From Escherichia coli (lineage in GTDB: Bacteria > Pseudomonadota > Gammaproteobacteria > Enterobacterales > Enterobacteriaceae), in NCBI RefSeq assembly GCF_003334335.1, contig NZ_QOWQ01000009.1: a DNA stretch of 64,000 nt; one strand, given 5' to 3'. The first letter of the stretch is position 1. Every line of letters starts with the position of its first letter. Shown here in pieces: positions 21,001-57,000 of this stretch. Position numbers: made by a program.

Positions 21001-24000
21001 GCGGCATAACTGCCGGCTGCGCTTATCCGGCCTACGGTTCATGACTTGTAGGGCGGATAAGATGCGCCAGCATCGCATCCGACAAAAGTGCCGGATGCGG
21101 TTGATGATTTATAGGCCGAAAAAGAAGTGTATTACTTACTCAAATCCACCTGATAAATCGCAAACCCGATATCATCGGTCGCGACTTTATTCATCGGATA
21201 TTGCCCTTTCTCTTTAATAAACGCCGCGGCTTTATCTGATGGAGAGGTTTCGAAACGGATATCCAGTTTCTTATCGCCAGCTATCGGTGCTAAACGCCAG
21301 TTGTTATCTGCCGCCGGGTGAATTTCCCCCGCACGTTTCGACTCATCAGCAATCCACGCTGCCAGCACCGAGCGGTTCTCATCCGGTGAAGCAAAAGCGA
21401 TATGGCTGTCGCCCGTACCGGCAAATTTGCCGCCGTAAGCGCGATAGTTATTGGTGGCAACCAGGAACATGGCGTTCGGATCAATCGGCTTGCCATTAAA
21501 GGTCAGGTTCTTAATCCTTTCCGCATTGGCATTAACCATCTGGCACTCGCCGTCATAACGGGCAGGCTGGGTAACATCAATCTGATAATTCACACCATCA
21601 ATCACATCAAAGTTATAGGTGCGGAAACCATCCCAGTTGATGAGTGACTGTGGTTTCGTGTTGTCAGGATCAATCTGGTTAAACTGTCCGGCGGAGCACT
21701 CCAGCCACTCTTTCACCTCTTTACCGCTGGCTTTCACCACAATCAGCGTATTGGGGTAGAGATAAAGATCGGCGGCATTACGGAAGGTCAACTGGCCTTT
21801 TTCCACCTCCACATAGCTTGCCGGATCATTTTTGCGACCACCAACTTTAAACGGTGCAGCAGCTGAAAGCACCGGCAGTTTTGCCAGATCCGGATCGCCC
21901 TGAATGTAATGCTCGACATACGCTTTTTGCGCGTTGTTCACCACCTGCACGGTCGGATCGTCCTGCACCAGCGCCAGATAGCTATACATATTGTCGGCGG
22001 ATTTACCGATTGGCTTGCTGACGAACTGGCGTGTGGCATCGTGATCGGCTTTGAGTGTTTCTACCAGCTTGCTGTCTTCCGCCGCGAGGGATTTTTTATT
22101 GGCGATGTCGTAAATCGGCCGTGCTTCCGCTTTCGCCTGCGTCACCTGCCATTTACCGCTGTTATTACTGAGTTGTAAGTCGACCACCCCAAGATGATCG
22201 CCCCACATGCCCGGCATTACCGCCGGAACACCATTCAGCGTGCCTTTCGCGATATCAGCCCCTTCGATATCAGCAAAATCTTTACCTGGGAAAACGGCGT
22301 GAGCATGGCCAAACATAATGGCGTTAACGCCAGGAATTTCACTGAGGTAATAAACTGAGTTTTCCGCCATCACTTTATACGGATCGGCAGATAGCCCGGA
22401 ATGCGCCAGAACGACAACGACATCGGCACCTTTCTCGCGCATTTCAGGCACGTATTTGCGCACGGTTTCGGTAATATCATTCACCGTCACTTTTCCGGAT
22501 AAATTAGCTTTATCCCAGCCCATGATTTGCGGCGGCACGACGCCAATATAGCCAATCTTCAGCGTCTGTTTTTTTCCGTCTTTATCGACCACTTCGGTAT
22601 CTTTAATTAAATACGGTGTAAACATTGGCTGTTTGGTTCTGGCGTCAATGACGTTGGCATTTACATAAGGGAATTTCGCTCCCGCCAACGCATTTTTCAG
22701 GTAATCCAGACCGTAGTTAAATTCATGATTGCCGAGTGTACCGACCGTATAATCCAGCGTATTCAGCGCCTTATAAACCGGATGAACATCACCTGCTTTT
22801 AATCCTTTCGCCGATATGTAATCGGCCAGCGGACTCCCCTGAATCAAATCGCCGTTATCGACCAGTACGCTGTTTTTCACTTCATTGCGGGCATCGTTAA
22901 TCAGGCTTGCCGTACGTACCAGTCCGAATTTTTCCGTGGCGGTGTCTTTGTAATAATCGAAATCCATCATGTTGCTATGCAGATCAGTGGTTTCCATGAT
23001 ACGTAGATCGACCGTCGCTGCATTCACACTGGCGGCAATCAGCGTGGCCAGGAGCGTTGCGCTAAACTTAATCATCAGGGACATCCTTTTATCATCGGGA
23101 ATACGAAAGAAAAGGGAGAATAAACGCCTTACTTATAGAACAGTGAAGAATGCCACAATTTTACGCTTTGAAAATGATGACACTATCACAGTTGGCGCAT
23201 TCATTAACGATAGGGTATAAGTAAAACAATAAGTTAACACCGCTCACAGAGACGAGGTGGAGAAATGTTAGATCAAGTATGCCAGCTTGCACGGAATGCA
23301 GGCGATGCCATTATGCAGGTCTACGACGGGACGAAACCGATGGACGTCGTCAGCAAAGCGGACAATTCTCCGGTAACGGCAGCGGATATTGCCGCTCACA
23401 CCGTTATCATGGACGGTTTACGTACGCTGACACCGGATATTCCGGTCCTTTCTGAAGAAGATCCTCCCGGTTGGGAAGTCCGTCAGCACTGGCAGCGTTA
23501 CTGGCTGGTAGACCCGCTGGATGGTACTAAAGAGTTTATTAAACGTAATGGCGAATTCACCGTTAACATTGCGCTCATTGACCATGGCAAACCGATTTTA
23601 GGTGTGGTGTATGCGCCGGTAATGAACATAATGTACAGCGCGGCAGAAGGCAAGGCCTGGAAAGAAGAGTGCGGTGTGCGCAAGCAGATTCAGGTCCGCG
23701 ATGCGCGCCCGCCGCTGGTGGTTATCAGCCGTTCCCATGCAGATGCGGAGCTGAAAGAGTATCTGCAACAGCTTGGCGAACATCAGACCACGTCCATCGG
23801 CTCTTCGCTGAAATTTTGCCTGGTGGCGGAAGGGCAGGCGCAGCTGTACCCGCGCTTCGGACCAACGAATATTTGGGATACCGCCGCTGGTCATGCTGTG
23901 GCTGCAGCTGCCGGAGCGCACGTTCATGACTGGCAGAGTAAACCGCTGGATTACACTCCGCGCGAGTCGTTCCTGAATCCGGGATTCAGAGTGTCTATTT

Positions 24001-54000: not shown

Positions 54001-57000
54001 CGGGCGGATGAATCCGACCTGATCCTCGAAGGATATATTGCTTTCCTTGATCCGCCAAAAGAGACAACTGCTCCGGCACTGAAGGCATTAAAAGCGAGTG
54101 GAATTACCGTAAAAATCCTTACTGGCGACAGTGAGTTAGTTGCAGCGAAAGTGTGCCATGAAGTGGGGCTGGACGCGGGAGAGGTGGTCATTGGTAGTGA
54201 TATTGAAACGCTATCTGACGACGAACTGGCAAATCTCGCACAGCGCACCACGCTGTTTGCTCGTCTGACGCCGATGCATAAAGAACGCATTGTGACCTTA
54301 CTGAAGCGCGAAGGGCATGTGGTTGGCTTTATGGGCGATGGTATTAATGATGCGCCCGCCTTACGCGCTGCGGATATCGGCATTTCTGTGGACGGCGCGG
54401 TAGATATTGCCCGTGAAGCGGCTGATATCATCCTGCTGGAAAAAAGCCTGATGGTGCTGGAAGAGGGGGTTATTGAGGGACGTCGCACTTTCGCCAACAT
54501 GCTGAAATACATCAAAATGACGGCGAGCTCTAACTTCGGTAATGTGTTCAGCGTGCTGGTGGCGAGTGCTTTCTTGCCCTTCCTGCCGATGTTGCCGTTA
54601 CACTTGCTTATTCAGAACCTGCTGTACGATGTGTCACAGGTGGCGATCCCGTTTGATAACGTCGACGACGAGCAAATTCAAAAGCCGCAGCGTTGGAATC
54701 CGGCGGATCTGGGGCGCTTTATGATCTTCTTCGGACCGATCAGCTCGATCTTCGATATTCTGACGTTTTGCCTGATGTGGTGGGTATTCCATGCCAACAC
54801 GCCGGAAACGCAAACGCTGTTCCAGTCGGGATGGTTTGTGGTGGGCTTACTGTCGCAAACGCTGATTGTGCATATGATCCGTACCCGCCGTGTGCCGTTT
54901 ATTCAGAGCTGTGCATCGTGGCCGTTAATGATCATGACCGTGATCGTGATGATTGTCGGGATCGCATTGCCGTTTTCACCGCTGGCCAGTTATCTGCAGC
55001 TGCAGGCGCTGCCGTTAAGCTATTTCCCGTGGCTGGTTGCGATTCTGGCAGGGTATATGACGTTAACCCAGTTGGTGAAAGGGTTCTATAGCCGTCGTTA
55101 CGGCTGGCAGTAAAGAATAAACTGGGCACGATAGCCCCGATTCAGATTGCAGACAAAGTGAGCGTTGTTCATGCCGGATGCGGCGTAAATGCCTTATCCG
55201 GCCTACAAATTCAATCAATTGCAGGAATCACGTAGGCCTGATAAGCGTAGCGCATCAGGCAATTTTGCGTTTGTCATCAGATTTAATCCGGGCATGATAG
55301 CCCGGATTTCCATCAAGATTAGCGACGAACAGCGATCGCTTCGATCTCAATTTTTACGTCTTTCGGCAGACGGGCAACTTCAACGCAAGAACGTGCCGGG
55401 AAGGTGGCATTGTGTTCGGTGAAGAAGGCTTCGTAGGTAGCATTAACGGTTGCGAAGTCGTTCAGATCTTTCACAAACACGGTGGTTTTAACGATGTCGC
55501 CCACTTTCAGGCCTGCGGCTTCGACGATCGCTTTTACGTTATCCAGCGACTGACGTGCCTGTGCAGCGACGTCTGCCGGTACTTCGCCCGTTTTCGGATT
55601 TACCGGGATCTGGCCGGAGGTGATGATCATATTGCCCAGATCAACGCCCTGTACGTAAGGACCGATAGCTGCCGGTGCATTTTCCGTCGCGATAGTTTTG
55701 CTCATGATTTCTCCTTTATTACAGCGGTAAAAAGTCTGGCTCATTATAGGGAGCCAGACTTTTATTACCAACCGCAATTAATTGGCCAGCACCACATTAT
55801 GGGAAAACTCTTTTTCACAGTATTTGCATTTGAGCGCGATGTCATTGGCGCGTTTTCGCACGGCAAAGCTGGAAGAAACCGGTTCGGCATGGCTGATACA
55901 GTTGCTGTTCGGGCAGACCAGCACATTGTCGATGCGCTCCGGCAGACTGGGGCGCGATTTACCCACCACTTCATAGTTGTCGATACGGTTAACCGTGGCT
56001 TGCGGCGCATACAATGCCAGTTGATCTACCTGATCTTCACTCAAAAAGGTATTTTCGATTTTGATCAGATCTTTGCGGCCCATCTCGCCAGAAGGCAGGT
56101 TCAGACCAATGGTGATGCGCTGATCCGTTTCGGTCAGCTTGAACAGACTCAACAGCTTAAAACCGATCTGGGCGGGGATATGGTCAATTACCGTGCCGCG
56201 TTTAATAGCTTCAACCTGCAATTTATTATCGTGTGTCATCTCTATTTCCCCTTACAGTACCAGATCGCGATTCAGAACCAGTGCCAGTAACGCCTGGCGA
56301 GCGAAAATCCCGTTGCCTGCCTGCTGGAAGTACCAGGCGTGTGGCGTTTTATCAACATCCGTCGCAATCTCATCAACACGCGGCAGCGGATGCAGCACTT
56401 TCATATTGGCTTTGGCGTTGTGGAGATCGCTGGCGCGAAGAACAAACTGCGCTTTCACGTTGGCGTACTCGGACGGGTCCAGACGCTCTTTTTGCACGCG
56501 GGTCATGTACAGGATGTCTACTTCCGCCATCACTTCTTCAATAGAGCTGTGCAGACTCCATGCGATCCCTTTTTCATCGAGCATATCCAGAATGTATTGC
56601 GGCATTGCCAGCGCGTCCGGCGCGATGAAGTAAAAACGGTTGCCATCGAACTTCGCTAACGCCTGAGTCAGGGAGTGAACGGTGCGGCCATATTTCAGGT
56701 CACCAACCATTGCGACGTGGAGATTGTCCAGACGCCCCTGGGTTTCCTGAATAGTGAATAAGTCCAGCAAGGTTTGCGTCGGATGTTGGTTGGAGCCATC
56801 ACCGGCATTCAGTACCGGTACATTGCCGGAAAACTCGGTGGCCAGGCGCGCCGCACCTTCCTGCGGATGACGCATCACTATCGCATCGACGTAAGTGCTG
56901 ATAACCGAAATGGTATCGGCCAGCGTTTCGCCCTTTTTACCCAGTGATGTATTGGCGCTGTCGGAGAAGCCCACCACGCTGGCACCCAGGCGGTGCATAG

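Follow-up and report, generated by a model that had tools for sequence, protein, structure and literature searches.

What can six clusters of repetitive extragenic palindromes (REPs) tell us about the stretch of Escherichia coli DNA in which they lie, and does their absence from an accessory island nearby reveal anything about the history of that island? We address both questions for 64,000 nucleotides of contig NZ_QOWQ01000009.1 (assembly GCF_003334335.1), the whole of which is referred to below as the window. An earlier reading of this DNA, made from the sequence alone, had placed six clusters of REP-like palindromes (BIMEs, for bacterial interspersed mosaic elements) within its intergenic regions and had taken their absence from the island as support for a distinct island history. 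Our analysis leads us, with high confidence, to regard the six sites as resident members of the REP/BIME complement which were seeded anciently, inherited in place and would act at the 3′ ends of genes, and to regard their absence from the island as uninformative. REP/BIME elements at these loci are already known.

The window was scanned with a Hamming search for the REP head and tail and with an nhmmer profile that represents the consensus of the y, z1 and z2 types. Both scans recovered 12 full or near-full REPs (24-37 nt), two per cluster, all within the six spacers singled out by the sequence-only reading, the ranges of which proved right to within a few bases. The sequence of these ranges consists of palindromes of the form GCC(G/T)GATGCG...CTTATC(C/A)GGCCTAC, accompanied by five fragments representing REP heads or halves. 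The E-values of the 12 units in the nhmmer scan lie between 1e-7 and 0.13, and everything else in the window scores 0.29 or higher. Consistently, the 14-nt tail motif CTTATCMGGCCTAC has 12 matches with at most two mismatches, compared with 0.50 expected, and none of 100 shuffled sequences reached 12. The GTAG/CTAC foot is present in 11 of the 12 units, the exception being CTGG at 45239-45242. All units are extragenic, lying in six intergenic spacers at 2-59 nt from stop codons, in agreement with the placement originally proposed. Six loci per 64 kb match the K-12 average, from which 4.9 are predicted (355 annotated REP elements in 4.64 Mb according to PMC4550694). No further credible REP was found in the 64 kb by either the Hamming or the nhmmer scan. 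One candidate on the minus strand of the fbp coding sequence (39843-39864; CCGGATGCGGTGTTCACGCCTT, E=0.29) is similar to the 5′ half of a y REP; it is coding, is kept as coding sequence in K-12 and ATCC 25922, and is judged to be a chance resemblance. The units are as follows, with BIME types assigned from sequence.

21012-21035, + strand, cluster 1 (convergent ytfH/cpdB, atypical): truncated REP, 2 nt past the ytfH stop codon
21048-21083, - strand, cluster 1: 36-nt REP of z2 length with y-like CCG bases (nhmmer E=8.5e-4)
21090-21101, + strand, cluster 1: REP head fragment GCCGGATGCGG, paired in the RNA fold with the head of the preceding REP
26666-26694, + strand, cluster 2 (msrA to paeA/ytfL spacer, BIME-1): z1-type REP, 29 nt
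26695-26729, no strand assigned, cluster 2: 35-nt L linker with a predicted core of the integration host factor (IHF) type, CAATATATTGAAT, at 26705-26717
26730-26763, - strand, cluster 2: y-type REP, 34 nt (E=7.9e-6), 47 nt downstream of the msrA stop codon
35695-35704, + strand, cluster 3 (ytfQ to ytfR, BIME-2): z-type head fragment GCCTGATGCC, 10 nt past the ytfQ stop codon
35710-35743, - strand, cluster 3: y-type REP (E=3e-7)
35758-35794, + strand, cluster 3: z2-type REP; a 14-nt S linker separates it from the y REP, the two standing head-to-head
41935-41943, cluster 4 (convergent mpl/yjgA, BIME-2): z-head fragment before the y REP
41951-41984, - strand, cluster 4: y-type REP, exact consensus match (E=1e-7)
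41998-42034, + strand, cluster 4: z2-type REP; a 13-nt S linker separates it from the y REP, the two standing head-to-head
42037-42052, - strand, cluster 4: half of another y REP, the third of the cluster, comprising its head, GTGCACCGCATCCGGC
45184-45198, - strand, cluster 5 (nrdD to nrdG, minus-strand operon, BIME-2): remnant of a y REP with an internal deletion (GTAGGC/TGCATCCGG)
45207-45242, + strand, cluster 5: z2-type REP with the tail CTGG
45257-45290, - strand, cluster 5: y-type REP (E=5e-7), 23 nt downstream of the nrdD stop codon
55173-55206, + strand, cluster 6 (convergent mgtA/ridA, BIME-1): y-type REP (E=2e-6), 59 nt past the mgtA stop codon
55207-55231, no strand assigned, cluster 6: shortened 25-nt L-type linker with a predicted IHF-type core, CAATTGATTGAAT, at 55209-55221 on the - strand
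55232-55260, - strand, cluster 6: z1-type REP, exact consensus match (E=3e-5)

The gene assignments of the sequence-only reading required partial revision. Its placement of clusters after ytfH, ytfQ, mpl and mgtA stands, whereas the cluster attributed to ytfL follows the stop codon of msrA at a distance of 47 nt and precedes ytfL/paeA (the two genes being on the minus strand), and the one attributed to nrdG lies within the nrdDG operon, downstream of nrdD. According to PMC3333891, BIME-1 combines z1 and y units around a long L linker, in which an IHF site is often present, BIME-2 combines z2 and y units around a short linker, and atypical BIMEs are chimeras. Classified in this way by sequence, the clusters are two BIME-1, three BIME-2 and one atypical BIME. 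Both BIME-1 are single tail-to-tail y + z1 pairs (26666-26763, with a 35-nt linker; 55173-55260, with a 25-nt linker), and in both linkers the motif CAAT-N4-TTGAAT agrees with YAANNNNTTGATW in 12 of 13 positions; the mismatch is common to both, as are the orientation and position relative to z1 and y. The linker region of cluster 2 (26687-26729, minus strand) is additionally matched by Rfam ES036/CssrF, with a score barely over the gathering threshold. The BIME-2 units (35710-35794, 41951-42034 and 45207-45290) pair y with z2 in inverted orientation across linkers of 13-14 nt; in cluster 5 the z2 and y REPs stand tail-to-tail with a 14-nt linker, and the two REPs of the atypical cluster 1 are likewise tail-to-tail, with a linker of 12 nt. 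Each BIME-2 locus contains one full unit and one or two remnants, a composition consistent with decayed arrays; length variants exist in other strains. Two of the BIME-2 units exceed the gathering score (59.5 bits) of the Rfam family naRNA4 (RF02564), which represents the BIME-2 unit of REP325, the one at 41954-42031 scoring 86.2 bits and the one at 35713-35791 scoring 67.3; the remaining clusters score 31-41 bits, under threshold, the nrdD-nrdG pair reaching 41. Since the model is in effect one BIME-2 unit, such a match confirms the class of the sequence and not an HU-related function.

Of the transcripts of the six clusters, five are predicted to fold strongly. Folding energies of the clusters in transcript orientation range from -36.8 to -63.8 kcal/mol, with z-scores of -4.0 to -5.6 in five of the six clusters and no shuffled sequence as stable. 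In a terminator scan, no canonical hairpin followed by a T-run was found in any of the six REP spacers, whereas terminators are present in the REP-free convergent spacers ytfK/paeA (25106-25130) and ytfP/ppa (33519-33538), and that of rplI lies at 4738-4762. Within the window, no gene-end spacer holds both a REP cluster and a canonical terminator.

The clusters are shared across distant lineages of the species. K-12 (phylogroup A) and ATCC 25922 (B2) carry all six at the orthologous spacers, with the same units, orientations and linkers, and the sole structural difference is a 5-nt deletion (GATGC) in the 5′ arm of the REP at 21012-21035 in the window lineage. The z2 tail at 45239-45242 reads CTGG in the window and K-12 and CTAC in ATCC 25922; the y-S-z2 unit between mpl and yjgA is identical in the three strains, whereas its immediate flanks vary. 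For a species-wide test, three spacers, each with 100 nt of unique flank per side, were compared with 5,426 complete genomes, loci covered over at least 80% being considered intact. The ytfH-cpdB locus is intact in 5,359 genomes, ytfQ-ytfR in 5,413 and nrdD-nrdG in at least 5,009 (a lower bound), that is, in at least 92-99.8% of the genomes, and the tested REP loci are nearly fixed in the species. Length variants, as known for BIMEs, occur in few genomes; for example, NZ_CP098919.1 and NZ_CP015831.1 have longer ytfQ-ytfR (about 170 bp extra) or nrdD-nrdG (about 32 bp extra) spacers, which may be BIME copy-number variants or insertions. An 84-nt BIME query matches all 5,426 genomes, with a median of at least 39 places per genome, and finds at least 193,693 chromosomal places compared with at least 146 on plasmids. 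Among 50,697 phage records, 40 have a match, and among the matches listed most come from short fragments that have no annotation, from bacterial contigs or from a record with transduced host DNA; genuine phage genomes are essentially without BIME matches. These observations bear out the view that REPs of this kind are typical of the E. coli chromosome.

How might the clusters have arisen, and what would they do? We propose that they were seeded before the phylogroups of E. coli diverged and have been inherited in place since, the seeding agent probably being a single-copy REP-associated tyrosine transposase (RAYT) encoded outside the window. The GTAG foot and the AA/GC stem mismatch which are needed for RAYT (TnpA-REP/YafM) cleavage in vitro (PMC3333891) are both present in the y units, and RAYT/REPIN systems are vertically inherited, with very low rates of REPIN replication (PMC8049555). 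Lying just past stop codons, the clusters would be transcribed as 3′ untranslated regions (3′UTRs) or intra-operon spacers, and their RNA hairpins may block 3′-to-5′ exonucleases and partly stop transcription; because they are located strictly at gene 3′ ends and in spacers without other terminators, a role at the RNA level is suggested. Such hairpins would favor the upstream gene, namely ytfQ over ytfRT-yjfF, nrdD over the activase gene nrdG, and msrA over read-through into paeA, whereas the convergent pairs ytfH/cpdB, mpl/yjgA and mgtA/ridA would each be capped by one palindrome which they share and which can serve either strand. At the level of DNA, IHF binding would be expected at the BIME-1 linkers and gyrase sites at the BIME-2 units, given that the L linker of BIME-1 binds IHF (PMC3333891) and that BIME-2 elements, chiefly in their y units, show an excess of gyrase cleavage that does not depend on transcription (PMC6379681). 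A recent preprint (bioRxiv 10.64898/2026.03.23.713779) describes a dual role for REP325 of yjdMN, which attenuates the downstream gene in a partly Rho-dependent manner and stabilizes the upstream mRNA, and reports a genome-wide bias of expression toward the upstream gene in 146 tandem pairs that contain a REP (median log ratio 0.96 vs. -0.09) as well as elevated expression of convergent pairs. It mentions none of the six flanking genes.

Several considerations count against this interpretation. The mechanism proposed for the six loci is carried over from other REP loci, and that preprint emphasizes a large influence of context, with mRNA half-life not being affected uniformly. The fold of the ytfQ-ytfR cluster gains little over shuffled sequences (z = -1.7). 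The IHF consensus with one mismatch occurs 72 times in the window compared with 57 expected, and since the motif is not enriched, the candidate IHF sites are supported by their position and repetition rather than by statistics. The consensus sequences (y, z1 and z2) on which the scans relied find backing in exact matches within the window and in the seed GATGCGGCGTGAACGCCTTAT given in PMC8049555.

The second question concerns the only large block of the window that has no counterpart in K-12, which we take to be the accessory island of the sequence-only reading:

4768-14206 (9,439 bp), between rplI and ytfB: accessory island with three genes for a tripartite ATP-independent periplasmic (TRAP) transporter and genes for an FAD oxidoreductase, a CoA transferase, an enoyl-CoA hydratase, a sugar-phosphate isomerase and a ketoreductase, as well as a divergently oriented gene for a TetR regulator

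The formal REP scan of the window detected no REP copy inside this block, the best nhmmer match within it having an E-value of 32, so that the absence itself is confirmed. It should be noted, however, that the island offers little room for REPs. It contains 464 bp of intergenic DNA, compared with 6,600 bp in the rest of the window, its gaps measure -4 to 52 bp except for a 212-bp divergent promoter region and the 111-bp junction spacer with the rplI terminator, and it has a single spacer of at least 60 bp bordering a gene 3′ end, compared with 22 in the core, six of which carry REPs. The Poisson probability of finding no REP in the island is 0.35 by length, 0.49 at the K-12 genome rate and 0.66 by intergenic bases, and Fisher p-values for the contrast between island and core are 0.32-0.74. 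REP-free gaps of similar length (9,882 and 8,931 bp) separate clusters in regions composed of core genes only; furthermore, the REP-free run that includes the island (1-21011) takes in 11.6 kb of core genes (ula, ribosomal-protein and ytfB-ytfH), and 55261-64000 is empty as well. The island is thus no repeat desert, if this is defined as a REP-free stretch significantly longer than the spacing of REPs predicts. Little intergenic room and ordinary REP spacing account for the lack of REPs, and their absence is no readable signal of the history of the island.

Other properties are more telling. The TRAP genes (0.41-0.45) and the TetR gene are low in GC, together spanning 0.40-0.45 with z-scores of -2 to -3.3 relative to the core genes of the window, whereas the catabolic genes have a typical GC of 0.50-0.55, indicating that the block is mosaic; composition is a hint, and better evidence than the absence of REPs, of a partly distinct history. 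About 58% of the genomes match the island at 90% identity or higher, and 1,446 have at least 80% of its length. In many other genomes the catabolic operon is accompanied by a different transporter module, as in ATCC 25922, which has HipA/helix-turn-helix (HTH) genes and a major facilitator superfamily (MFS) transporter. The rplI-ytfB site is a variable hotspot in which swappable transporter modules precede a conserved catabolic operon, with TRAP genes in the window, an HTH/HipA toxin-antitoxin pair and the MFS gene in ATCC 25922, and yjfZ in K-12. Because the K-12 pseudogene ytfA (3694-4096 of the segment compared) aligns with the 3′ part of the island TetR gene (13962-14609), K-12 retains a remnant of the island, yjfZ having replaced the rest. 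The island operon genes are 92.3-95.5% identical to those of B2, close to the values for the core genes fklB (95.3%), cycA (94.8%) and qorB (95.6%), and together with the carriage and the TetR remnant in K-12 this divergence identifies the island as an old, polymorphic resident. Given such long residence without a REP, the absence of REPs is no clock at the scale of this island.

These data bear directly on the explanation implied by the sequence-only reading, namely that the island was acquired horizontally too recently for REPs to have colonized it and that the contrast therefore marks a distinct history. The explanation draws on genuine properties of these elements: REPs are overwhelmingly chromosomal and nearly missing from genuine phages, RAYT/REPIN systems are inherited vertically with very low replication (PMC8049555), and repeat deserts have been used in the same manner in Pseudomonas fluorescens (PMC2718517). 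Moreover, the block is polymorphic in the species and partly low in GC, and other accessory inserts, including esiB, the arc cluster and the HipA/MFS module of ATCC 25922, are also without REPs. Nevertheless, with a single eligible spacer and the probabilities given above the contrast has no statistical power, core stretches of 9.9 and 8.9 kb lack REPs just as well, and 11.6 kb of flanking core belongs to the REP-free run. The lower limit for deserts in Pseudomonas, 15.8 kb, applies to a far more repeat-dense genome, and both the divergence of the operon from B2, comparable to that of its core neighbors, and the remnant in K-12 speak against a recent arrival. We consider this scenario very unlikely, and the inference from missing REPs to a distinct island history is not upheld.

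For the clusters themselves, it could be argued that they are mainly nucleoid organizers acting at the DNA level, through gyrase at BIME-2, IHF at BIME-1, and HU with naRNA4-type transcripts, rather than 3′UTR elements of RNA. Gyrase cleavage at BIME-2 is enriched and persists when transcription is blocked, although it affects a subset of BIME-2 only (PMC6379681). The L linker carries an IHF site (PMC3333891) and a core is predicted in both BIME-1 of the window; two units exceed the naRNA4 threshold, and naRNA4 is reported to condense DNA with HU (PMC4550694). By contrast, the preprint (bioRxiv 10.64898/2026.03.23.713779) finds no measurable nucleoid compaction by REP325/naRNA4 and no long-range contacts between REPs, the effects being local on the flanking operon. 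For lack of such compaction we rank this possibility, which is on the unlikely side yet deserves serious attention, below the 3′UTR interpretation, which also fits the strict location of all six clusters at gene 3′ ends. The clusters might alternatively be neutral, selfish relics of RAYT activity that serve no function and are kept since excision is rare. Decayed units are indeed present (the REP at 21012-21035 has a 5-nt deletion, the tail at 45239-45242 reads CTGG, and only remnants are left at 42037-42052 and 45184-45198), and rates of REPIN replication and loss are very low (PMC8049555). However, the mpl-yjgA unit is without substitutions in three phylogroup representatives despite variable flanks, even if gene conversion among REPs could mimic purifying selection, the tested loci are intact nearly throughout the species, and the spacers have no alternative terminator; we regard pure relics as unlikely. 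As for chance hairpins or ordinary Rho-independent terminators, the palindromes do occur where terminators are expected, but no T-run follows any of them, the terminator scan called none, and the excess of motif matches (12 compared with 0.5 expected) together with dozens of near-identical copies per genome refutes this notion, the probability of which we regard as negligible. Resident REP/BIME elements, anciently seeded and acting at gene 3′ ends, remain the explanation that we adopt.

A more specific role can be considered for the REP next to ytfH. According to Liang, Rudd and Deutscher (2015), as summarized in PMC12306157, REPs located less than 16 nt from a stop codon down-regulate translation of the upstream gene. 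The structure of the ytfH-proximal REP starts 2 nt past the stop codon, inside this range, and the REP might thus be a translational brake on the YtfH regulator, which the 5-nt deletion would retune in the window lineage; we regard this as distinctly unlikely. If true, it would provide a natural allelic series for REP-mediated translational control at ytfH. The six flanking genes are not in the RepRanger supplements.

The genomic setting of the clusters is that of an ordinary E. coli chromosome. In a megablast comparison, 5,358 of the 5,426 complete genomes match positions 20000-44000 at 100% identity with at least 80% coverage; the window as a whole is collinear both with E. coli NZ_CP062855.1, to which it is 98.7-99.9% identical, and, except for three indels, with K-12 MG1655 (4,424,000-4,473,900). 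The left part of the window comprises ulaC-F, yjfY, rpsF-priB-rpsR-rplI, the block absent from K-12, ytfB, fklB, cycA, ytfE, ytfF, qorB and ytfH; the middle part cpdB, cysQ, ytfJ, ytfK, paeA (ytfL), msrA, tamAB, ytfP, ppa, ytfQRT-yjfF, fbp, mpl and yjgA; and the right part pmbA, cybC, nrdG, nrdD, treCBR, mgtLA, ridA, pyrIBL, yjgH, bdcAR, tabA, a yjgL-like gene, argI, rraB and yjgM. Relative to K-12, the window has no ytfI (cysQ/ytfJ gap, 24005-24010) and no chpSB toxin-antitoxin pair (ytfP/ppa gap, 33671-33800), whereas in ATCC 25922 the chpSB site is occupied by esiB, and pyrL is followed by an arginine deiminase (arc) cluster. No REP was found in the ytfI, chpSB, esiB and arc inserts in the comparison with K-12 and ATCC 25922. 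The yjgL-like open reading frame (60229-61740) is also REP-free and, with a GC of 0.33 (z = -4.9 relative to the core genes of the window), is a second patch of foreign composition; in the window it is intact (503 aa), and in NZ_CP062855.1 it is annotated as a frameshifted pseudogene. Other Rfam matches above threshold are the RpsF leader (3193-3277, plus strand), ES239 in the divergent cpdB-cysQ spacer (23076-23198, plus strand), STnc450 between the msrA BIME and the start of paeA (26550-26607, minus strand), and the Mg2+ riboswitch/mgtL leader upstream of mgtA (52208-52323, plus strand).

A 25-nt imperfect direct repeat (84% identity) brackets the mgtA-ridA BIME-1, with copies at 55118-55142 (TAAACTGGGCACGATAGCCCCGATT) and 55284-55308 (TAATCCGGGCATGATAGCCCGGATT). 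Both copies form small GC hairpins and are kept in K-12 and ATCC 25922. A new dispersed family, or a larger palindrome or duplication, can be dismissed, as the repeat occurs at one locus per E. coli genome and the wider symmetry is reached by 47 of 500 shuffled sequences. The repeat could represent duplicated mgtA/ridA terminator hairpins or a footprint of the arrival of the BIME.

In themselves, the REP/BIME elements described here are of little import, their presence at these loci being a textbook feature of E. coli. What is gained is a sharper annotation, with BIME types assigned and each cluster tied to the gene whose 3′ end precedes it, and the recognition of the nrdD-nrdG and ytfQ-ytfR clusters as intra-operon elements which likely set subunit ratios. 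More generally, the absence of REPs is a valid marker of foreign DNA only where the stretch far exceeds the usual distance between REP loci (about 13 kb per locus in K-12) and the intergenic space on offer is taken into account; in a compact operon of 9.4 kb it carries no information.

Comparison with known systems places the clusters firmly among familiar elements. The contrast drawn by the sequence-only reading follows the same logic as the repeat deserts of P. fluorescens SBW25 (PMC2718517), which, however, were required to span at least 15.8 kb in a much more repeat-dense genome, whereas the island measures 9.4 kb and the empty stretch includes core genes. The units share with the E. coli y, z1 and z2 REPs, or palindromic units (Bachellier et al. 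1999; Ton-Hoang et al. 2012, PMC3333891), a length of 29-37 nt, an imperfectly palindromic sequence with the AA/GC stem mismatch, the GTAG/CTAC foot, an extragenic location and hundreds of copies per genome; nothing substantial sets them apart, although a few copies in the window are decayed (the 5-nt deletion, the CTGG tail and three remnants). The clusters at 26666-26763 and 55173-55260 resemble BIME-1, or RIP (repetitive IHF-binding palindromic) elements, in having a single y and a single z1 tail-to-tail and a long linker with a predicted IHF-type core (CAAT-N4-TTGAAT), the mgtA-ridA linker differing in its length of 25 rather than about 35 nt. Those at 35.7, 42.0 and 45.2 kb are similar to BIME-2 and REP325/naRNA4 (RF02564) in combining y and z2 across 13-14-nt linkers; REP325, however, consists of six tandem units, compared with a single unit and remnants at each locus of the window, and the nrdD-nrdG pair is tail-to-tail and below the Rfam threshold. 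REPs are known as mRNA stabilizers in transporter operons that begin with the binding-protein gene, as at malE-malF and hisJ-hisQ. The ytfQ-BIME-ytfRT-yjfF and nrdD-BIME-nrdG arrangements are like these two and like yjdM-REP325-yjdN in that the gene needed in larger amounts stands upstream and the REP lies within the operon.

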